From a virus (lineage: Duplodnaviria; Heunggongvirae; Uroviricota; Caudoviricetes), in IMG/VR virus record IMGVR_UViG_2724679539_000006, positions 1 through 31,897 of that record: a stretch of 31,897 nucleotides of DNA; one strand, written 5' to 3'. Numbering within the stretch: the first letter of the stretch is position 1; the number at the start of each line of letters is the position of its first letter. The notes beneath the pieces were generated by a model, which saw nothing but the letters and a program-made list of their open reading frames with translations, was not told where the DNA came from and ran no database searches. The translations under genes and the position numbers were made by a program. Positions 3,881 through 17,338 of the stretch are shown one piece after another.

Positions 3881-3969
3881 ATGTTTGTTCTCAGAATGGA
3901 CATGGCCCAAGGAAATAACGCTGATTTAATACTTCAGTCTTTGCCGCATTTAAAAATACGCGAACACCT

Positions 3970-4140
3970 TCACGATCTCCCTTCTGGCGATACATTAACG
4001 CCTGCTGCGTGTACATGCGTCTCTGTAACTTGCTCTCCTTCACTGTGGTTGCAAGTGACATGAATATCTCCTTCGTTACCGATTAATTCTTTCATCTGAC
4101 GAATGAATTCTTCGTCTGACCAGTTATCTGTAAAACTCAT
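3970..4140 (-). CDS. hypothetical small protein (56 aa) at the kil position
   Basis: ATG at 4140 forms an ATGA overlap with the cIII stop; identity as Kil not verifiable from sequence. Confidence 0.4.
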   Translation of the reverse strand: MSFTDNWSDEEFIRQMKELIGNEGDIHVTCNHSEGEQVTETHVHAAGVNVSPEGRS

Positions 4141-7578: not shown

Positions 7579-7725
7579 ATGACAAAACAACTCAGTCCTT
7601 ACCAGGACAAAATTCACAAACACATACTACGTGATCGCTTCCTGTCCAGCTTCAAGCAGCCTGGTCGATTCCGGGCTGAGTTGGAAAAAGTGAAGCTGAT
7701 GCAGAAGGAGAAAGGTCATGAGTAA
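7579..7725 (+). CDS. small hypothetical protein (48 aa, [21 protein letters not shown]...)
   Basis: not in ORF track; AGGAG 5 nt upstream of ATG at 7579; 3' end overlaps the O-like start by 8 nt. Confidence 0.35.
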
Positions 7726-8578
7726 TCTTGCAACCATAACACATTTAAGGCCTTCACAACGGCCTGTGGAGCGTCGTGTGGCAGAAGTTGAAGATGGTTA
7801 TACCCGTCTTGCAAATGCCCTGTATGAAGAGCTTATCGGCGCAGATTTAACGAAAAATCAGAGCAAGGTTGCCCACGCCATATGCCGTAAAACATACGGC
7901 TACGGTAAAAAGATGGATCGCATCTCTGATAGTCAGTTAGCTCAAATTACCAGGCTGCCAAGACAGAAGGTAAACAAGGCCAAGAATGAGCTTATCGCGA
8001 TGAAGGTTATCCTTCGCGAAGGCCAGCAAATCGGGCCTAACAAGAACATCGAAGAATGGCAAATCGAAGGGTGTCACTACTCTGGTGATAATGTCACTGC
8101 ATTGGTGACAAAAAGTGTCACCAAAACGGTGACAGCGCTGTCACCAAAACAGGGACACACAAAAGAAACTATTACAAAAGAAAAAAGAAATAATAAAAAC
8201 ACTATGTCCGAAAGTGTTCGGACGGAGTGTGAAAAATCACCTGACCGTCACGAAGAAATCGACAAGGCATTCGAGGAAATATTCTGGTGTGCAGGCATGC
8301 GGAAAGCCGGGAAGAAAAACGCAGCTTCGGCATTCAGAACACAGTTCAGGGAATGGCGTAAAACTACCAGGGGTACGGCAAGCGAGTTTGCCACGATGCT
8401 GGCAGAAGACATCGCATGCAGGAATGGTAAGCAGTTCGGATTCGACAGGTTGTTACCATCGAGCTACCTGAACGGTCAGCGCTGGAACGACGAGAAGCCA
8501 GAAACTATTCAACCACAATCCAAACCATCATCCGCAATCACCGTATCGAAAACTGGCTACGTGTTTTTCGACAGGTGA
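7718..8578 (+). CDS. O: replication initiator, lambda-O-like N-terminal domain with a different C-terminal domain
   Basis: N-terminus [14 protein letters not shown]...DLTKNQSKV...[25 protein letters not shown] resembles lambda O; AAGGAG RBS; iterons lie inside the gene. Confidence 0.75.
8071..8210 (+). repeat. candidate replication origin: palindromic iterons (GGTGACA-N4/5-TGTCACC) followed by an AT-rich tract
   Basis: at least three dyad iterons at 8084-8145 spaced by AAAAC, then about 50 bp A/T-rich (8160-8210); same layout as lambda ori inside O. Confidence 0.5.
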
Positions 8579-8685
8579 ACCATGAAATCAAAAATCAAAT
8601 CGCTACTGGTCGCTGGTTATAACCACGGCTGGTTAAGTATTTCGTTTGTCGATTTCTGGTTTAAAAATCTCAATCTGAGGGAATC

Positions 8686-9180
8686 ATGATGAGCCTTGAA
8701 GTTGGAGAATATATACCTGGTTATGAGGGTAAATACTCTGTAACCAAAGACGGTCGTGTTTATTCACATTTAAGAGGCAGGTTTTTGAATCCATCTCCGG
8801 ATAACAAGGGTTATCTAAGAGTCACTTTGTGTTCCGATGGGATTCAGAAGACGTTAAAAGTTCATCGTCTTGTAGCTCAATTATTTATCCCAAATCCGTA
8901 TTGCAAGCCAGAAGTAAATCATATCAACGGCGACAAATCGGATAACGCCATTTGGAACTTGGAATGGTGTACCTGCTCAGAGAATTTAAAACATGCTTTT
9001 AGCATCGGACTGAAAAGCGCAAAGGGAGTTTTTAATGGTAGGGCAAAACTATCTGAAACTGATGTGATTGATATCAGGAATTCTGTTGGTATGAAACTAA
9101 GCGAACTATCCACTAAATACGGAGTGAGTGAAATGCAAATTTCCACAATCCGCAGAGGAAACGCATGGAGGCACCTTTGA
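8686..9180 (+). CDS. HNH homing-endonuclease-like protein (NUMOD4-like N-terminus + HNH + C-terminal HTH)
   Basis: GYEGKYSVTKDGRVYS motif, then HRLVAQLF...NHINGDKSDNAIWNLEWCTCSEN (HNH); GAGGGAA RBS. Confidence 0.75.
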   Translation: MMSLEVGEYIPGYEGKYSVTKDGRVYSHLRGRFLNPSPDNKGYLRVTLCSDGIQKTLKVHRLVAQLFIPNPYCKPEVNHINGDKSDNAIWNLEWCTCSENLKHAFSIGLKSAKGVFNGRAKLSETDVIDIRNSVGMKLSELSTKYGVSEMQISTIRRGNAWRHL

Positions 9181-11057
9181 GTCCATCAGAACTCAGTGAC
9201 CTGCTTTGGGCGCAGGTTGACAGGGTGGCTCCGCACCTGTTGCCAAACGGCAAGAAAGAGGGGCATGAGTGGGTTGCCGGTAACGTCAACGGTGACAAGG
9301 GAAACAGCCTTAAGGTCAACCTTAGCGGCAAGAAAAAATGGGCTGATTTCGCTGAGGGAGACGGCGGTGACATGCTTGATTTGTGGATGGCATGTCGTGG
9401 AATTAACCTGCATCAGGCTATGCAGGAAGCGAAAGCCTTTCTCGGAATCAAGGATGACGATCACCATTTCGATGCCAAACGTGAGAAGAAATTCTCCAGA
9501 CCTGACCGCAAGAAAATCGCCCGCTACGTTACCAGAACAGAATCCCATCTTGAGTACCTGCAATCGCGTGGCATATCGCCAGAAATCGTAAAACGCTACG
9601 AGGTTGTCAGCGGCAAGGTGTGGAATGGAGAGCGAGAACTGGATGCTCTGGTGATTCCGTACAAACGCGATGGTGAGTTGTTGCAGGTAAAGCGAATCAG
9701 CACTGAGCGCCCGGACGGGAAGAAAGTCATTATGGCAGAAGGTGATTGCGAACCTTGTCTGTTCGGATGGCAGGCTCTGGACGCTGGCGTGAGGGCGGTT
9801 GTACTTTGCGAAGGCGAAATTGATTGTATGAGCTATGCGCAATACGGCATCTCGGCGTTATCCGTGCCGTTTGGTGGCGGGAAAGGCGCTAAGCAACAGT
9901 GGATTGAGTTTGAGTATCACAACCTCGACAGGTTTGAGGAGATATTCATCTCGATGGACGTTGATGATGTTGGTCGTGAAGCCGCAAGGGAAATCGCAAG
10001 CCGACTCGGTGAACATCGTTGCCGTCTTGTTACTCTGCCGTACAAAGACATCAACGAATGCCTGATGAACGGTGTTACCGAGGATGAAATCTGGCAGTAC
10101 ATCGGCACGGCATCCTACTTCGATCCTGAAGAACTCTACAGTGCGCGAGAGTTTTACCAGGACACTATCAACGCTTTCTACGGCAAGCAGCAGTATCTGT
10201 TTAATCCACCGTGGGAATCTCTGGCAGATAAATTCCAGTTCCGTGAGGCAGAGTTGACGCTGGTCAATGGTGTGAACGGTCACGGAAAAACGGAGGTTGT
10301 CGGGCATATGGCACTTGAGGCAATGCGTCAGGGTGTGAAGACGTGCATCGCGTCACTTGAGCTGAAGCCAGGCATTCTCCTTAAGCGACTTACCCGTCAG
10401 GCAACGTGCTGCAAGATGCCGCCAGTGCTGGAAATTGACTCTGCATTTAAATTTTATGACGAAAGACTTTGGGTGTTTGGCCTGACCGGAACGGCGAAAG
10501 CCGACAGGCTGATCGAAATATTCGACTACGCTCGCCGCCGATACGGTATCCAGTTATTCATCATCGACAGCCTGATGAAATGTGGCATAGGCGACGATGA
10601 CTATAACGGGCAGAAGGCGTTTGTTGACTCGATTTGCGACTTCAAAAACAAAACAAACTCCCACGTCATTCTCGTTACTCACTCGCGAAAAGGAGACAGC
10701 GAAGAAAAACCAACCGGGAAAATGGACGTAAAAGGCTCTGGAGCGATAACAGACCTGACAGACAACCTTTTCATCATCTGGCGTAACAAGGCTCGCGAGA
10801 GAGCGTTACAGAGAGTTCAGAGTGGTGAAAAGATGTCAGAGAAGGACGAACAGCTACTGGCATCTCCGGCATCTGTTTTGATGCTTGAAAAACAACGTAA
10901 CGGCGAAGGTTGGGAGGGTGGTGTCCCGTTGTTCCTTGACGAGCAATCGCACCAGTTCCTGCAACTTGAATCAGGATCGCCATATAGCTACATCGCCAAT
11001 ATGCCGAAATCGGAATATGACGAGGCGTGGCGACAGGAAAACGTGACGGAGTATTAA
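9165..11057 (+). CDS. bifunctional DNA primase-helicase (TOPRIM + RecA/DnaB-like helicase)
   Basis: TOPRIM acidic motifs (CEGEID, MDVDDVG); Walker A NGVNGHGKTE; Walker B LFIIDSLMK; 630 aa. Confidence 0.8.
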   Translation: MEAPLSPSELSDLLWAQVDRVAPHLLPNGKKEGHEWVAGNVNGDKGNSLKVNLSGKKKWADFAEGDGGDMLDLWMACRGINLHQAMQEAKAFLGIKDDDHHFDAKREKKFSRPDRKKIARYVTRTESHLEYLQSRGISPEIVKRYEVVSGKVWNGERELDALVIPYKRDGELLQVKRISTERPDGKKVIMAEGDCEPCLFGWQALDAGVRAVVLCEGEIDCMSYAQYGISALSVPFGGGKGAKQQWIEFEYHNLDRFEEIFISMDVDDVGREAAREIASRLGEHRCRLVTLPYKDINECLMNGVTEDEIWQYIGTASYFDPEELYSAREFYQDTINAFYGKQQYLFNPPWESLADKFQFREAELTLVNGVNGHGKTEVVGHMALEAMRQGVKTCIASLELKPGILLKRLTRQATCCKMPPVLEIDSAFKFYDERLWVFGLTGTAKADRLIEIFDYARRRYGIQLFIIDSLMKCGIGDDDYNGQKAFVDSICDFKNKTNSHVILVTHSRKGDSEEKPTGKMDVKGSGAITDLTDNLFIIWRNKARERALQRVQSGEKMSEKDEQLLASPASVLMLEKQRNGEGWEGGVPLFLDEQSHQFLQLESGSPYSYIANMPKSEYDEAWRQENVTEY

Positions 11058-11086
11058 ATGACCATCTACATCACTGAGCTAATAAC

Positions 11087-11118
11087 AGGCCTGCTGGTAA
11101 TCGCAGGCCTTTTTATTT
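11087..11118 (+). terminator. intrinsic terminator (tR2 position, upstream of ninB)
   Basis: stem AGGCCTGC/GCAGGCCT with 8-nt loop, followed by TTTTTATTT. Confidence 0.65.
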
Positions 11119-11134
11119 GGGGGAGAGGGAAGTC

Positions 11135-11575
11135 ATGAAAAAACTAACATTTGAAATTCGATCTCCGGCACATCAGCAAAACGCTATTCACGCAGTACAG
11201 CAAATCCTTCCAGACCCAACCAAACCAATCGTAGTAACCATTCAGGAACGCAACCGCAGCTTAGACCAGAATCGGAAGCTTTGGGCTTGCCTTGGTGACG
11301 TTTCGCGTCAGGTTGAATGGCATGGTCGCTGGCTGGATGCAGAAAGCTGGAAGTGTGTGTTTACCGCAGCATTAAAGCAGCAGGACGTTGTTCCTAACCT
11401 TGCCGGGAATGGCTTTGTGGTAATAGGCCTGTCAACCAGCAGGATGCGTGTAAGCGAATTTGCGGAGCTATTAGAGCTTATACAGGCATTCGGTACAGAG
11501 CGTGGCGTTAAGTGGTCAGACGAAGCGAGACTGGCTCTGGAGTGGAAAGCGAGATGGGGAGATCGGGCTGCATGA
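11135..11575 (+). CDS. ninB: NinB recombination protein
   Basis: 146 aa, MKKLTFEIRSPAHQQNAIHAVQQILPDPTKPIVVTIQERNRSLDQNRKLWACLGD... matches lambda NinB. Confidence 0.9.
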   Translation: MKKLTFEIRSPAHQQNAIHAVQQILPDPTKPIVVTIQERNRSLDQNRKLWACLGDVSRQVEWHGRWLDAESWKCVFTAALKQQDVVPNLAGNGFVVIGLSTSRMRVSEFAELLELIQAFGTERGVKWSDEARLALEWKARWGDRAA

Positions 11576-12099
11576 CTATCAAATCAAATACGCCAGCACA
11601 CGACAAGGACTGCTGGCAAACGCCGCTCTGGCTTTTTGATGCACTGGATATTGAGTTTGGATTCTGGCTGGATTCGGCAGCGAGCGACAAAAATGCTCTG
11701 TGTGCTCACTGGCTAACTGAGGCCGACGACGCGCTCAATTCTGAGTGGGTAAGCCACGGTGCAATCTGGAATAACCCACCGTACAGCAATATCAGGCCGT
11801 GGGTGGAAAAAGCCGCTGAGCAGTGCATACAACAGCGACAGACGGTAGTGATGCTTGTGCCAGAGGATATGTCAGTCGGATGGTTCAGCAAGGCTCTGGA
11901 GAGTGTCGACGAAGTTCGCATTATCACTGATGGACGGATTAATTTTATCGAACCATCGACGGGGCTGGAGAAGAAGGGAAACAGCAAAGGTTCCATGCTG
12001 CTGATTTGGCGACCGTTCATCAGTCCTCGACGGATGTTTACTACCGTATCCAAAGCGGCATTGATGGCGATCGGGCAGGGCGTCAGGAGGGCGGCATGA
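11572..12099 (+). CDS. dam: phage DNA N6-adenine methyltransferase (Dam-type)
   Basis: NPPY catalytic motif ([10 protein letters not shown]); occupies the ninC/ninD position; ATGA overlap with ninB. Confidence 0.8.
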
Positions 12100-12278
12100 G
12101 ACGACAGCGACGAAGTATCACCGACATCATCTGCGAAAACTGCAAATACCTTCCAACGAAACGCTCCAGAAATAAACGCAAGCCAATCCCAAAAGAATCT
12201 GACGTAAAAACCTTCAACTACACGGCTCACCTGTGGGATATCCGGTGGCTTAGAGAACGTGCGAGGAAAACAAGGTGA
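12096..12278 (+). CDS. ninE: NinE
   Basis: 60 aa, [54 protein letters not shown]... matches lambda NinE; ATGA overlap with dam. Confidence 0.8.
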
Positions 12279-12445
12279 TTGACCCAAATCGAAGTTACGA
12301 ACAAGAAAGCGTCGAGCGGGCTTTAACGTGCGCTAACTGCGGTCAGAAGCTGCATGTGCTGGAAGTTCACGTGTGCTCCGATTGCTGCGCAGAACTGATG
12401 AGCGATCCGAATAGCTCAATGTACGAGGAAGAAGACGATGGCTAA
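12275..12445 (+). CDS. ninF: NinF
   Basis: not in ORF track (56 aa); GTG start overlapping the ninE stop; ...[24 protein letters not shown]...[15 protein letters not shown] resembles lambda NinF. Confidence 0.55.
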
Positions 12446-13004
12446 ACCAGCGCGAAGACGATGTAACCGTAAAAGAGAAGATTTAACTGTTAAAAGGATA
12501 TTTGAGTTACTAAGTTTCGATAAATCTACCGGGGTATTTAGATGGAAAGTTCCCACTCAGGGAAGGATAGCATTAAATAGTATTGCTGGAACTTTTGATT
12601 CCAACGGTTATTCAATGATCATGATAGATGGGCGTAGATATAAAACTCACGTCTTAGTTTTTTACATAACTCATAATCGTTGGCCTGCTGGTCAAATTGA
12701 CCACGTCAATGGAATTAGGACCGACAATAGGCCAGAAAATTTAAGAGAATGCCTGCCAATAGAAAATTCAAGAAATATAAGGATCCGAAAGAATAGCAAA
12801 TCAGGTTGCAGAGGAGTTACTTGGCACAAACGACAGAAAAAATGGAATGTTAGGCTAGGTTTCCATGGCAAGAGTAAACACTTCGGATGCTTTGATGATC
12901 TGGAGTTAGCGGTACTAGTTGCTGAAGAAGCCCGAGATAAGTATTACGGTGATTTTTCCGGCAACGAAAGGAGCACTTATGCGAATCTATCGAAGGAAAT
13001 GTAA
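12438..13004 (+). CDS. HNH endonuclease with AP2 DNA-binding domain
   Basis: [34 protein letters not shown] (HNH) followed by [37 protein letters not shown] (AP2-like); first 9 codons MAKPARRRC equal the lambda NinG start as recalled. Confidence 0.75.
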
Positions 13005-13581
13005 ATGTTGCAATGAATGGTTTATACCAAAATATCAAAATCAATATTGGTGTAATGAGATTTGTGGAACCAAGATAGCACTCGAACGACGAAGCAAAGA
13101 ACGCGAAAAAGCGGAAAAGGCAGCAGAGAAGAAACGACGACGAGAGGAGCAGAAACAGAAAGATAAACTTAAGATTCGAAAACTCGCCTTAAAGCCCCGC
13201 AGTTACTGGATTAAACAAGCCCAACAAGCCGTAAACGCCTTCATCAGAGAAAGAGACCGCGACTTACCATGTATCTCGTGCGGAACGCTCACGTCTGCTC
13301 AGTGGGATGCCGGGCATTACCGGACAACTGCTGCGGCACCTCAACTCCGATTTGATGAACGCAATATTCACAAGCAATGCGTGGTGTGCAACCAGCACAA
13401 AAGCGGAAATCTCGTTCCGTATCGCGTCGAACTGATTAATCGCATTGGGCAGGAAGCAGTAGACGAAATCGAATCAAACCATAACCGCCATCGCTGGACT
13501 GTCGAAGAGTGCAGGGCCATCAAGGCGGAGTATCAGCAGAAACTCAAAGACCTGCGAAACAGCAGAAGTGAGGCCGCATGA
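12979..13581 (+). CDS. ninG: NinG (Rap-like recombination protein)
   Basis: matches lambda NinG from [29 protein letters not shown]... onward; N-terminal 30 aa diverged but keep the Cys pattern; AGGAG RBS before ATG at 12979. Confidence 0.85.
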
Positions 13582-13784
13582 CGTTCTCAGTAAAAACCAT
13601 TCCAGACATGCTCGTTGAAGCATACGGAAACCAGACAGAAGTAGCACGCAGACTGAAATGTAGTCGCGGTACGGTCAGAAAATACGTTGATGATAAAGAC
13701 GGGAAAATGCACGCCATCGTCAACGACGTTCTCATGGTTCATCGCGGATGGAGTGAAAGAGATGCGCTATTACGAAAGAATTGA
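13578..13784 (+). CDS. ninH: NinH
   Basis: 68 aa, [58 protein letters not shown]... matches lambda NinH. Confidence 0.85.
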
Positions 13785-14427
13785 TGGCAGCAAATACCGA
13801 AATATTTGGGTAGCTGGCGATCTGCACGGATGCTACACGAACCTGATGAACAAACTGGATACGATTGGATTCGACAACAAAAAAGACCTGCTTATCTCGG
13901 TGGGCGATTTGGTTGATCGTGGTGCAGAGAACGTTGAATGCCTGGAATTAATCACATTCCCCTGGTTCAGAGCTGTACGTGGAAACCATGAGCAAATGAT
14001 GATTGATGGCTTATCAGAGCGTGGAAACGTCAATCACTGGCTGCTTAATGGCGGTAGTTGGTTCTTTAATCTCGATTACGACAAAGAAATTCTGGCTAAA
14101 GCTCTTTCCCATAAAGCAGATGAACTTCCGTTAATCATCGAACTGGTGAGTAAAGGTAAAAAATATGTCATCTGCCACGCCGATTATCCTTGTGACGAAT
14201 ACGAGTTTGGAAAGCCAGTTGATCATCAGCAGGTAATCTGGAACCGAGAACGAATCAGCAACTCACAAGACGGGATCGTGAAAGAAATCAAAGGAGCGGA
14301 CACGTTCATCTTTGGTCATACGCCAGCAGTGAAACCACTCAAGTTTGCCAACCAGATGTATATCGATACCGGCGCAGTGTTCTGCGGAAACCTCACATTG
14401 ATTCAGGTACAGGGAGAAGGCGCATGA
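13762..14427 (+). CDS. ninI: NinI Ser/Thr protein phosphatase
   Basis: 221 aa from ATG 13762; GDLHGC...GDLVDRG...GNHE metallophosphatase motifs; matches the lambda phosphatase. Confidence 0.9.
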
Positions 14428-15047
14428 GACTCGAAAACGTAGCTAAATTTCATTCGCCAAAAAGCCCGATGATGAGCGACTCACCACGGGCTACGGCTTC
14501 TGACTCTCTTTCCGGTACTGATGTGATGGCTGCTATGGGGATGGCGCAATCACAAGCCGGATTCGGAATGGCTGCATTCTGTGGTAAGCACGAACTCAGC
14601 CAGAACGACAAACAAAAGGCTATCAACTATCTGATGCAATTTGCACACAAGGTATCGGGGAAATACCGTGGTGTGGCAAAGCTCGAAGGAAATACTAAGG
14701 CAAAGGTACTGCAAGTGCTCGCAACATTCGCTTATGCGGATTATTGCCGTAGCGCTGCGACGCCGGGAGCAAGATGCAGAGATTGCCACGGTACAGGCCG
14801 TGCGGTTGATATAGCAAAAACAGAGCAGTGGGGGAGAGTTGTCGAGAAAGAGTGCGGAAGATGCAAAGGCGTCGGCTATTCAAGGATGCCAGCAAGCGCC
14901 GCATATCGCGCTGTAACGATGCTAATCCCAAACCTTACCCAACCCACCTGGTCACGCACTGTTAAGCCGCTGTATGACGCTCTGGTGGTGCAATGCCACA
15001 AGGAAGAGTCAATCGCAGACAACATTTTGAATGCGGTCACACGTTAG
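14424..15047 (+). CDS. Q: Q late-gene antiterminator
   Basis: 207 aa, [47 protein letters not shown]... matches lambda Q. Confidence 0.9.
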
Positions 15048-15089
15048 CAGCATAATTGCCACGGATGGCAACATGTTAACGGCATGATA

Positions 15090-15125
15090 TTGACTTTTTG
15101 AATAAAGTTGGGTAAATTTGACCCA
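15090..15125 (+). promoter_or_regulatory. PR' late promoter with qut site
   Basis: -35 TTGACT (15090-15095), 17-bp spacer, -10 TAAATT (15113-15118); sequence context as in lambda PR'/qut. Confidence 0.7.
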
Positions 15126-15318
15126 ACGATGGGTTAATTCGCTCGTTGTGGTAGTGAGATAAAAAGAGGCGGCGCTTACTACCGATTCCGCCTAGTTGGT
15201 CACTTCGACGCATCGTCTGGAACTCCAACCATCGCAGGCTGAGAGGTCTGTAAAATGCAATCCCGAAACAGTTCGCAGGTAATAGTTAGAGCCTGCATAA
15301 CGGTTTCGGGATTTTTTA
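15125..15318 (+). ncRNA. 6S RNA (short PR' transcript ending at tR')
   Basis: predicted start about 7 nt after the -10 to the end of the tR' U-run gives about 194 nt, the lambda 6S RNA length. Confidence 0.5.
15262..15318 (+). terminator. tR' intrinsic terminator
   Basis: long hairpin CCCGAAAC...GGTTTCGGG followed by ATTTTTTAT, as in lambda. Confidence 0.75.
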
Positions 15319-16120
15319 TATCTGTGTAACAGGTAAGAGCATTCTCCCTTATGGGGCTTGGCTTAAATGCACCGAGTGCTCTTATCGTTGTGGCAGCACA
15401 ACGATAGTTTTCGTCAGAGTTGGCGACTTTGCGGTTTTTTAGAAACTGACCACAAAGATAAATGCAAACGATGATGTTGTTCTGATGGCGGCGTAATAGC
15501 CTGTAAGTCAGCAAGGTCTTCCGACTCCTTGTAAACAAATTCGGCGCACTGGCCCGGTGTGATTAATAATGGGCACACAACAGGTAAGAGCATTAAAGAA
15601 CTGGCAAAGAGCTTAACGGTCTGCGAAAGCATTTCTTAGTGGCACAACTGGCCGGTACAACTGAGTGCTCTTTCCGGTGTGGTGAATGCGCAGGCTGATG
15701 CGCGCAGGAGAGCTTCGGAAGAACAAGGTGCCTGTATACAAGCCGGAGATCAGCGCCGGCCACCACAGCCAAATCCACCCAGAGCAAAACCGTTGTTCAT
15801 CCTTACCATTCCCTCAGTATTTTGGGCTACAACCCTCAGCCCATTTTTTAAAGCGTACTTCCACCAAGAACCAGACCTAACCAACTCATTGCTGACACTC
15901 TGTGGATACGGTTGTCTAGTGCGCTTTAAAAAAGAAAACCCAGCATCAATGGCTGGGCTTCGTGATATGAGCGGCATGTATTGTTGGCGCAATCCACGCC
16001 TGATTTGCTCATGAATGCGGTCACGAACAAGCCCGTTACAAATAAACCGTAACCCGGATTTGTTCAAGCGACCATATCCATAATTCCTAATTTGAACAGA
16101 TCCCCTTCTGGGGGTAAGAC

Positions 16121-16444
16121 ATGAAGATGCCAGAAAAACATGACCTGTTAGCCGCCATTCTCGCGGCAAAGGAACAAGGCATCGGGGCAATCCTTGCGTT
16201 TGCAATGGCGTACCTTCGCGGCAGATACAATGGCGGTGCGTTTACAAAAACAGTAATCGACGCAACGATGTGCGCCATTATCGCCTGGTTCATTCGTGAC
16301 CTTCTCGACTTCGCCGGACTAAGTAGCAATCTCGCTTATATAACGAGCGTGTTCATCGGCTACATCGGTACTGACTCGATTGGTTCGCTTATCAAACGCT
16401 TCGCTGCTAAAAAAGCCGGAGTAGAAGATGGTGGAAATCAATAA
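16121..16444 (+). CDS. S: S holin/antiholin (dual-start S107/S105)
   Basis: [54 protein letters not shown]... matches lambda S; ATGAAGATG dual-start motif. Confidence 0.9.
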
Positions 16445-16904
16445 TCAACGTAAGGCGTTCCTCGATATGCTGGCGTGGTCAGAGGGAACTGATAACGGAC
16501 GTCAGAAAACCAGAAATCATGGTTATGACGTCATTGTTGGCGGAGAGCTATTCACTGATTACTCCGATCACCCTCGCAAACTTGTCACGCTAAACCCCAA
16601 ACTCAAATCAACAGCAGCCGGACGTTACCAGCTTCTTTCCCGTTGGTGGGATGCCTATCGTAAGCAGCTTGGCCTGAAAGACTTCTCTCCGAAAAGCCAG
16701 GACGCTGTGGCACTGCAGCAGATTAAAGAACGTGGCGCTTTACCGATGATTGATCGCGGTGATATTCGTCAGGCAATCGACCGTTGCAGCAATATCTGGG
16801 CTTCTCTGCCGGGGGCTGGTTATGGTCAGTTCGAGCATAAGGCTGACAGCCTGATTGCAAAATTCAAAGAAGCAGGCGGAACGGTCAGAGAGATTGAGGT
16901 ATGA
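16428..16904 (+). CDS. R: R endolysin (lytic transglycosylase)
   Basis: 158 aa, [51 protein letters not shown]... matches lambda R. Confidence 0.9.
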
Positions 16905-17338
16905 GCAGAGTAACCGCGATTATCTCCGCTCTGGTTATCTGCATCATCGTCTGCCTGTCATGGGCTGTTAATCATTACCGTGATAACGCCATGACCTACA
17001 AAGAGCAGCGCGATAAAGCCACATCCATCATCGCTGATATGCAGAAGCGTCAACGTGATGTAGCAGAACTCGACGCCAGATACACAAAGGAGCTTGCTGA
17101 TGCTAACGCGACTATCGAAAGCCTCCGTGCTGATGTTTCTGCTGGTCGTAAGCGCCTGCAAGTCGCCGCCACCTGTGCAAAGCCAACGACCGGAGCCAGC
17201 AGCATGGGCGATGGAGAAAGCCCAAGACTTACAGCAGATGCTGAACTCAATTATTACCGTCTCAGAAGTGGAATCGACAAGATAACCGCGCAGGTTAACT
17301 ACCTGCAGGAGTACATCAGGACGCAATGCCTTCGATGA
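16901..17338 (+). CDS. Rz: Rz i-spanin
   Basis: N-terminal transmembrane segment [30 protein letters not shown] as in lambda Rz; periplasmic part diverged. Confidence 0.8.
17100..17285 (+). CDS. Rz1: Rz1 o-spanin lipoprotein, embedded in the +1 frame of Rz
   Basis: AAGGAG 7 nt before ATG at 17100; signal peptide with lipobox VSAC, Pro-rich mature part. Confidence 0.65.

Follow-up and report, generated by a model that had tools for sequence, protein, structure and literature searches.

A probable homing-type HNH-AP2 endonuclease cassette within the start of ninG, a lambdoid recombination gene

The seg and mob genes of T-even phages spread by "intronless homing" (PMC2988022), and the insertions of mobE into nrdA (phage Aeh1) and of mobA into the topoisomerase gene 39/60 have left the host gene encoding two separate polypeptides, which need to reassemble (PMC2988022, PMC2790892). 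The combination of HNH and AP2 is a recognised homing-endonuclease architecture (PMC10448857), represented by the HNH-AP2 family (Magnani et al. 2004, cited in PMC10448857) and by the "IPA-HNH" homing endonuclease genes (HEGs) of vibriophage ICP1. In gene 31 of Salmonella phage epsilon34, moreover, the eaE N-terminus continues in frame into a putative HNH homing endonuclease (PMC2629481). The present analysis concerns a caudoviral DNA stretch of 31,897 nucleotides (IMG/VR virus record IMGVR_UViG_2724679539_000006, positions 1 to 31,897; the whole stretch is referred to as the window), in which ninG (rap), a recombination gene of lambdoid phages, harbours in its 5′ end what is probably a free-standing HNH-AP2 homing-type endonuclease cassette.

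The window comprises a lambdoid early-right (nin) operon with the gene order O, a NUMOD4-HNH gene, primase-helicase, ninB, dam, ninE, ninF, the HNH open reading frame (ORF) under study, ninG, ninH, phosphatase and Q, and its positions 8438-17004 are 100% identical to a contig of an E. coli draft assembly (GCA_000968905.2, JZWQ02000012.1). The cassette and its borders are composed of the following features:

12275-12445, + strand: ninF, 56 aa, homologous to lambda ninF (Pfam NinF, 7.7e-14)
12425-12429, + strand: original ninG Shine-Dalgarno GAGGA, 8 nt before the ATG, predicted from sequence to serve the HNH ORF now (motif also in lambda)
12438-12466, + strand: retained ninG 5′ end, 29 nt (MAKPARRRC), identical to lambda 42432-42460 and providing the start codon and leader of the HNH protein
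12438-13004, + strand: HNH-AP2 endonuclease ORF, 188 aa (phrog_99, Pfam HNH_3, structure model)
12467-13062, + strand: low-GC block, 596 nt (junction mapping, GC content, near-invariance in 52 loci)
12699-12767, + strand: HNH catalytic motif D88 H89 ... N101 L102 R103 ... N110 (invariant alignment columns)
12804-12950, + strand: AP2-type DNA-binding domain, residues 123-171
12967-12973, + strand: new Shine-Dalgarno AAAGGAG, 5 nt before the ATG at 12979 and within the 3′ end of the HNH ORF (from sequence)
12979-13062, + strand: replacement ninG 5′ end, 28 codons, overlapping the HNH ORF by 26 nt
12979-13581, + strand: rebuilt full-length ninG (rap), 200 aa (Pfam NinG, phrog_171)
13063-13581, + strand: lambda-type ninG remainder (right homology arm), polymorphic across cassette-bearing loci

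Alignment with lambda bore out both the lambda ninG 5′ sequence on which the initial annotation relied and its proposal that the HNH ORF opens with the first nine ninG codons, identical over about 28 nt, before running into an HNH plus AP2 endonuclease. Specifically, the first 29 nt of the ORF (opening ATGGCTAAACCAGCGCGAAGACGATGTAA) match lambda in 29 of 29 positions (MAKPARRRC plus 2 nt), and divergence starts at 12467. Lambda-type sequence (TGTGGAACC; TGTGGAACCAAGATAGC...) does return downstream, at 13063 rather than near 13055 as initially annotated. The 596-nt block in between substitutes for 64 nt of lambda ninG (lambda 42461-42524), i.e., the codons for NinG residues 10-31, including the C..C...C...C motif. 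The HNH part of the block has a GC content of 38.9% and its last 85 nt (the 5′ part of the rebuilt gene, further denoted ninG′) one of 28.2%, versus 47-52% for ninE, ninF and the ninG remainder, and the block is thus compositionally foreign and low in GC. The ninF stop overlaps the captured ninG/HNH start codon, just as ninG overlaps ninF in lambda. Since the 29-nt leader extends a homology that runs through the upstream ninE-ninF region, and the ninG remainder is about 96-97% identical to lambda, a chance resemblance of the leader to lambda can, on these alignments, be considered excluded. An assembly artefact is excluded as well, since the same arrangement recurs in hundreds of independent complete genomes. 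The 12466/12467 and 13062/13063 junctions were identical across all loci examined.

In-frame ATG, GTG or TTG codons occur in the HNH ORF at codons 1, 60, 62 and 188 only, and a conserved N-terminal motif (LL.YD..TG.F.WK, HNH residues 24-37) precedes codon 60, so that the HNH protein should be producible only from the captured ninG ATG with its GAGGA Shine-Dalgarno. The HNH gene has, in other words, no start codon of its own and is predicted to use the translation start of ninG. Since its homologues begin 3-8 residues ahead of the conserved motif (alignment with 13 homologues), the MAKPARRRC(NRKRED) stretch is an added leader. In an AlphaFold model of the HNH protein (pLDDT 83), residues 1-12 and the C-terminal tail of residues 178-188 were disordered (leader pLDDT about 49), and this tail is encoded by the ribosome-binding region of ninG′.

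That ninG restarts at 12979 with its own ribosome-binding site and a divergent but homologous Cys-rich N-terminus, as initially annotated, was confirmed. The first 28 codons of ninG′ keep the Cys pattern (...WCNEIC) at 58% nucleotide identity to lambda, and the 200-aa product matches the profile of the NinG/Rap junction-specific endonucleases (PF05766) over its full length (284.9 bits, 4.2e-85, residues 4-194 of 200 versus profile positions 5-192 of 193) as well as phrog_171 (3e-120). The stretch 13063-13581 is 97-99% identical to lambda and SfI. The new Shine-Dalgarno, the ATG and the 28 diverged codons join the ninG remainder in frame, and full-length NinG is therefore predicted still to be made. 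No + strand promoter or terminator was found inside the block, suggesting that HNH and ninG are both carried on the delayed-early pR transcript, and RNA structure prediction around the new Shine-Dalgarno and ninG′ start yielded nothing significant (z = 0.07).

Because the insert is bordered by an imperfect direct repeat (CGAAGACGATGTAA on the left side and CGAAGGAAATGTAA before 13005), an in-frame junction of 12466 to 13005 (continuing as CCNEWF) is formally possible, so that ninG could in principle be restored by splicing of an intron or intein. This is very improbable: no Rfam family, including group I and II introns, was detected at E <= 1 on either strand of 12200-13300, the ORF fills nearly the whole insert and leaves no space for a ribozyme core, and ninG has its own strong Shine-Dalgarno and ATG. 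An intein is further contradicted by the lack of intein blocks, by an HNH frame that differs from that of ninG′, and by the presence of a stop codon.

The HNH ORF matches Pfam HNH_3 (PF13392) above the curated threshold (42.7 bits versus a cut-off of 24.8, E 4.3e-11, residues 68-107) and the PHROGs family phrog_99 "HNH endonuclease" (2e-71), and hundreds of genomes already list the gene under the name "HNH endonuclease". The catalytic His and the metal-binding Asp/Asn residues (D88, H89, N101 and N110) were invariant in the alignment with the 13 homologues (30-98% identity). No sequence relative of the protein was found among solved structures; the structures closest to its model were the homing endonuclease I-HmuI and AP2 domains, and the predicted strands and helix of the beta-beta-alpha-metal motif (residues 86-113) superposed on I-HmuI. 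The AP2 (PF00847) profile match lay below its curated threshold (22.1 bits versus a cut-off of 33.3, E 1.8e-4) and the sole PDB sequence match for this part was weak (the AP2 domain of WRI1, E 0.19); the fold itself, i.e., a three-stranded antiparallel sheet packed on one helix, was recovered.

Among 5426 complete E. coli genomes, the block was present in 538 (571 places, all chromosomal; a count inflated by clonal sampling of Shiga-toxin-producing E. coli (STEC)), with an identity of 99% or more in 514. When little beyond the diverged ninG 5′ end served as query, 538 genomes (569 places) were likewise returned, always beside an HNH annotation among the matches listed, and nothing in these sequences suggests that the ninG′ 5′ end occurs apart from the HNH gene. 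Most of the E. coli copies reside in STEC lineages (O157, O145, O111), where homology with the window begins 13 nt upstream of the ATG, the original ninG Shine-Dalgarno being the sole upstream sequence retained. Among isolated phages, the block was confined to two distinct Stx1 phages, AU6Stx1 and SH2026Stx1, both of which have one GenBank and one RefSeq entry (blastn, 50,697 phage records), whereas IMG/VR held 56 contigs with a full cassette copy. The exact 188-aa protein was encountered in 346 blocks of the contig collection, spread over at least 10 gene neighbourhoods with differing replication, nin, Q and lysis modules, and the representative of a 99%-identical cluster came from Salmonella Infantis. 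None of the GTDB species representatives contained the cassette, and the scan of them gave a single, unrelated Planctomycetota match (39%).

Cassette-free ninF-ninG junctions, for which the initial annotation had proposed a survey, were common (lambda, SfI, phage 21, 434, many other phages and many E. coli prophages), i.e., the cassette is polymorphic in presence and absence at one precise site in otherwise homologous genomes. The refuting condition set in the initial annotation, that related phages would lack insertion-free alleles, did not hold. Elsewhere, the ninF/ninG boundary is occupied by unrelated insertions (a KilAC antirepressor (roi-like), NinX and hypothetical genes) and is thus a general hot spot for module insertion. 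Cassette-free ninG comprises at least two more 5′ allele types (loci L019 from 736, L021 from 1201 and L068-L101; L102 from 2501): a type 2 allele (MAKPARRKCKICKEWF...CCPEHGT), two codons shorter as in the allele of the cassette, and a third type, in L102, opening MRIARRRCKNEEC.

Several individual copies deserve mention in their own right. In Stx1 phages such as AU6Stx1 (L002 2479-6021), ninF is lost and 13-16 nt before the ATG are kept beside a divergent 590-aa gene; in AU6Stx1, stxA1 follows the HNH-ninG unit at a distance of about 2.5 kb, the intervening genes being ninG, ninH and Q. In the ninG copies of STEC loci, including L002, the Lys/Glu-rich linker (window 13113) contains an in-frame duplication of 9 nt (GAAAAGGCA), which is found in neither the window nor lambda. 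In E. coli PK8241 (L004 3549-4762), an IS3-family element separates the rebuilt ninG from the HNH stop region, having inserted precisely between them, and slightly lengthens the HNH ORF. A candidate HNH copy without ninG′ (H74) was rejected, as it proved to be an IS3 insertion between the two genes.

Nucleotide diversity (pi) was calculated over 52 cassette-bearing loci (51 from IMG/VR plus the window). It was 0.001-0.006 in the cassette (12438-13062), 0.022 in 13063-13112, and climbed to about 0.09-0.11 at the ninG 3′ end; on the left side it was 0.12 in the 16 nt upstream of the ATG and 0.29 further left. Diversity thus steps up 5-10 fold within 50 nt outside the block. The first 200 nt of the right flank comprised 25 haplotypes, with no fixed difference from cassette-free alleles and two haplotypes common to both, and the right-flank diversity of cassette-bearing loci was not below that of cassette-free alleles, a control limited by the dominance of type 2 alleles in the cassette-free set. 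On the other side, at least three left contexts were distinguished, and the replication, Q and lysis modules vary. Comparison of the window with STEC copies showed 99.2% identity for the block and about 95% for the adjoining ninG. The picture is therefore one of a young, near-uniform block set into numerous old and diverged backgrounds, the end-points of exchange falling no more than a few bases from its borders. A hitchhiking or co-conversion gradient in the right flank was discarded as not diagnostic, since the rise of diversity with distance is similar in cassette-free alleles.

The HNH ORF was intact in 54 of 55 IMG/VR loci, and its pN/pS amounted to 0.32 (10 synonymous and 12 non-synonymous changes, binomial p = 0.009) when the contig-collection loci selected by identical protein were left out, or to 0.25 with all loci, the estimates being based on 22-25 changes only. 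The HNH ORF is thus under purifying selection (pN/pS about 0.3). These figures bear on the possibility that the endonuclease is an inactive, decaying relic, whose ORF persists merely through youth while only the rebuilt ninG matters. The single non-intact copy (L158, frameshifted by a 1-nt deletion), rare singleton changes at conserved residues (N101S, P83T) and a truncated 104-aa variant in the database (P0003) would fit such decay. Nevertheless, the relic explanation is improbable given the near-complete conservation of the ORF, a number of synonymous changes significantly above the neutral prediction, and the intact catalytic residues of the window copy.

A similar design is found in the neighbouring gene. 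A ninF-type HNH-AP2 gene (168 aa, 37% identical to that of the window, 36% GC) is located inside ninF after ...HVCE in 45 of the 5426 E. coli genomes (e.g., L006 1315-1821 and L007 1615-2121, from JEB8 and strain 875, and also EPEC E2348/69). There, the rebuilt ninF terminates in a new low-GC sequence, by which the fourth Cys is restored (HVCERCIYEC...), and the old tail persists as a small remnant ORF. Both cassettes belong to the same family and operon, and both interrupt a Cys-motif segment and rebuild the host gene with foreign sequence, the ninF-type site lying about 130 nt upstream of the ninG site. The ninF case is, however, a mirror image, in that replacement affects the 3′ end of ninF, whose former end persists downstream; moreover, the ninF-type HNH gene has its own ATG, in contrast to the ninG-type gene, and is rarer (45 versus 538 genomes). 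The replacement-end design has two independent occurrences, one at the 5′ end of ninG and one at the 3′ end of ninF, with takeover of the translation start in the ninG case. In a further locus (L009 about 3900-4000, GCA_022977155.1), the last codons of a ninF-type HNH gene (..LGFHENHGRP*) and the ninF remnant lie directly upstream of a ninG-type cassette, joined to a truncated PAPS-reductase (ninC) gene; the two cassettes therefore once stood in tandem, and a later deletion took most of the ninF-type one.

Homing with co-conversion is the best explanation for the ninG cassette and fits all the indirect evidence, i.e., the low-GC foreign block, the presence or absence at a fixed site, the invariant block on diverged flanks, the purifying selection and the I-HmuI-like fold; we hold this mechanism, which we infer, with moderate confidence. 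The footprint proposed in the initial annotation is upheld as far as the HNH-AP2 gene in the ninG 5′ end and the reconstituted ninG start are concerned; co-conversion from a donor is a presumed step. Enzymatic activity, target location, nuclease-dependent spread and the donor are likewise matters that we infer.

The chief alternative, which we regard as rather unlikely though considerably less so than a relic or splicing, is that of a passive mosaic module, acquired once by an illegitimate event from a low-GC phage and later spread only by ordinary (Red/RecA) recombination through the ninF and ninG flanks, with the nuclease being tolerated or otherwise useful (cutting of competitor or host DNA, anti-defence). 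The flanks are highly conserved (96-98%) among readily recombining lambdoid phages, so any insertion at this hot spot for unrelated modules would spread by ordinary recombination and leave the same diversity step as homing. Strict linkage between HNH and the ninG′ 5′ end would arise under any scenario, as the 84-nt segment is too diverged for recombination, and purifying selection fits any useful function equally well. On the other hand, the block is 5-10 fold less diverse than its flanks, which are as diverse as those of cassette-free alleles, and yet it accompanies at least 25 flank haplotypes and occurs in three left contexts; this points to fast spread and not to drift. Moreover, the characterised members of this family and fold are homing enzymes, and the design recurs in ninF, in a second and unrelated copy.

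Besides this equivalence in expected diversity, a number of points weigh against homing. No co-conversion tract, in the sense of an extended shared haplotype, reaches beyond the block, polymorphism setting in 4 nt to its left and 8 nt to its right, a point in favour of the passive module. HNH relatives of 47-98% identity were lacking in a database of 5.8 billion clusters, and an HNH-free donor ninG allele with the 5′ end of the cassette was absent from every collection searched (phages, E. coli, GTDB, protein clusters and IMG/VR), which makes the step of co-conversion from a donor a reconstruction. In addition, cassette-free ninG alleles occur in the same chromosomes as the cassette, e.g., in the O26 strain 7_26_9A, which has a type 2 allele together with the cassette; such co-residence is what one would see if lysogens keep the nin region silent. 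The clonal inflation of the genome count and the few changes behind the pN/pS estimate also count on this side.

As regards the donor searches themselves, a "distant" blastn against the 50,697 phage records returned only the same cassette (AU6Stx1, SH2026Stx1), and tblastn of the NinG′ N-terminus against phages gave a best identity of about 65%, mainly in the conserved GTKIALERR part. A protein search with the 44-aa NinG′ N-terminus gave fragments of the same allele only, the word-indexed approach being uninformative for such short queries. IMG/VR yielded the same cassette and the other NinG 5′ alleles (type 2; L102, MRIARRRC...), none of them AT-rich. In the literature searched, no description of the cassette or of its nested, start-capturing design was found, although it may be described elsewhere.

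Under the homing reading, the enzyme would, during co-infection or co-induction, recognise a cassette-free ninG through its AP2 and N-terminal DNA-binding modules, and nick or cut this empty allele in or near the 64-nt segment (lambda about 42461-42524). In the cassette, this putative target is replaced by the 84-nt segment with 58% identity, a level compatible with immunity, so that its own allele may be immune. Recombinational repair (by Red, Orf, Rap or RecA), with ninF and the 29-nt leader as left arm and ninG from 13063 as right arm, would then give the cut genome a copy of the HNH gene along with the replacement ninG 5′ end. The diverged 5′ end could in this way provide both protection of the carrier and a functional NinG. 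The cassette itself probably arose only once, by illegitimate or homeologous exchange with a low-GC phage in which HNH lay just upstream of a diverged ninG.

Other HNH genes are present nearby. Window 8686-9180 (+ strand) contains a second free-standing endonuclease gene (164 aa; NUMOD4, 1.6e-10, and HNH_3, 2.3e-9), which is located between O (7718-8578) and the primase-helicase gene (9165-11057) and overlaps the latter by 16 nt; in three related prophages (L009, L013 and L014), the match to the window stops at 8689 and resumes at 9189, which is a clean empty site for this gene. Further HNH_3-AP2 genes (170-174 aa, 36-39% identical to that of the window) were found in the gap between Q and holin (L012, L013, and L017 6435-6947) and in that between DUF1364 and rusA (L007 2667-3191). 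The lambdoid early-right/late boundary region hosts a whole guild of such genes. Tentatively, and with clearly less confidence than for the ninG cassette itself, lambdoid phages including Shiga-toxin phages may host an HNH-AP2 homing guild that invades Cys-motif nin genes without intron or intein, by means of diverged replacement ends that would serve as self-immunity and repair at once.

The architecture is real and widespread: about a tenth of the complete E. coli genomes, mainly of Shiga-toxin-producing lineages, carry the cassette. If it encodes an active homing nuclease, it would offer a readily testable case of intronless homing in lambda, where tools for crosses and marker co-conversion exist, and such activity could influence recombination between Stx prophages. 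An active HNH-AP2 guild might even supply drive or interference weapons between co-induced prophages and help set the breakpoints of Stx-phage mosaicism. Start-codon capture combined with a replacement gene end, together with the mirror case in ninF, would then illustrate how a selfish gene, with neither intron nor intein, can invade a coding sequence and still spare it. If inactive or passive, the cassette would be one more mosaic module of the nin region.

The closest counterparts of the ninG cassette in layout are the T-even mobA-E genes, which likewise are HNH genes with a C-terminal DNA-binding region, lie outside any intron or intein next to or within a conserved phage gene, and are inserted into functionally critical coding regions (PMC2988022, PMC2790892). 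In T-even mob spread, the endonuclease-free allele is cut and flanking DNA is co-converted, whereas for the ninG cassette such spread is presumed. Unlike with mobE and mobA, ninG stays in one piece, as the cassette brings a substitute 5′ end, and unlike the T-even mob genes, the ninG-cassette nuclease has lost its own start and uses that of the host gene. Furthermore, its host is a temperate lambdoid phage rather than a T4-like one, and its activity is predicted. The structurally similar I-HmuI (the HNH nicking homing endonuclease of Bacillus phage SPO1, PDB 1u3e) shares only 19% sequence identity with the window protein, is intron-encoded and ends in helical/HTH modules, whereas the window protein ends in an AP2 domain. 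With the HNH-AP2 family and the ICP1 IPA-HNH genes, the cassette shares an N-terminal HNH and a C-terminal AP2, often near or within important phage genes (PMC10448857), but the ICP1 domains are too diverged for Pfam HNH_3, which the window protein clearly matches, so that the likeness is one of architecture only. As in epsilon34, a P22-like/lambdoid phage carries an HNH gene fused in frame to the N-terminus of the invaded resident gene; the epsilon34 case concerns another operon (early left) and another host gene, and a downstream rebuilt copy of that gene was not reported. The ninG cassette probably represents a selfish element of a kind already known, its parts being arranged with unusual tidiness.

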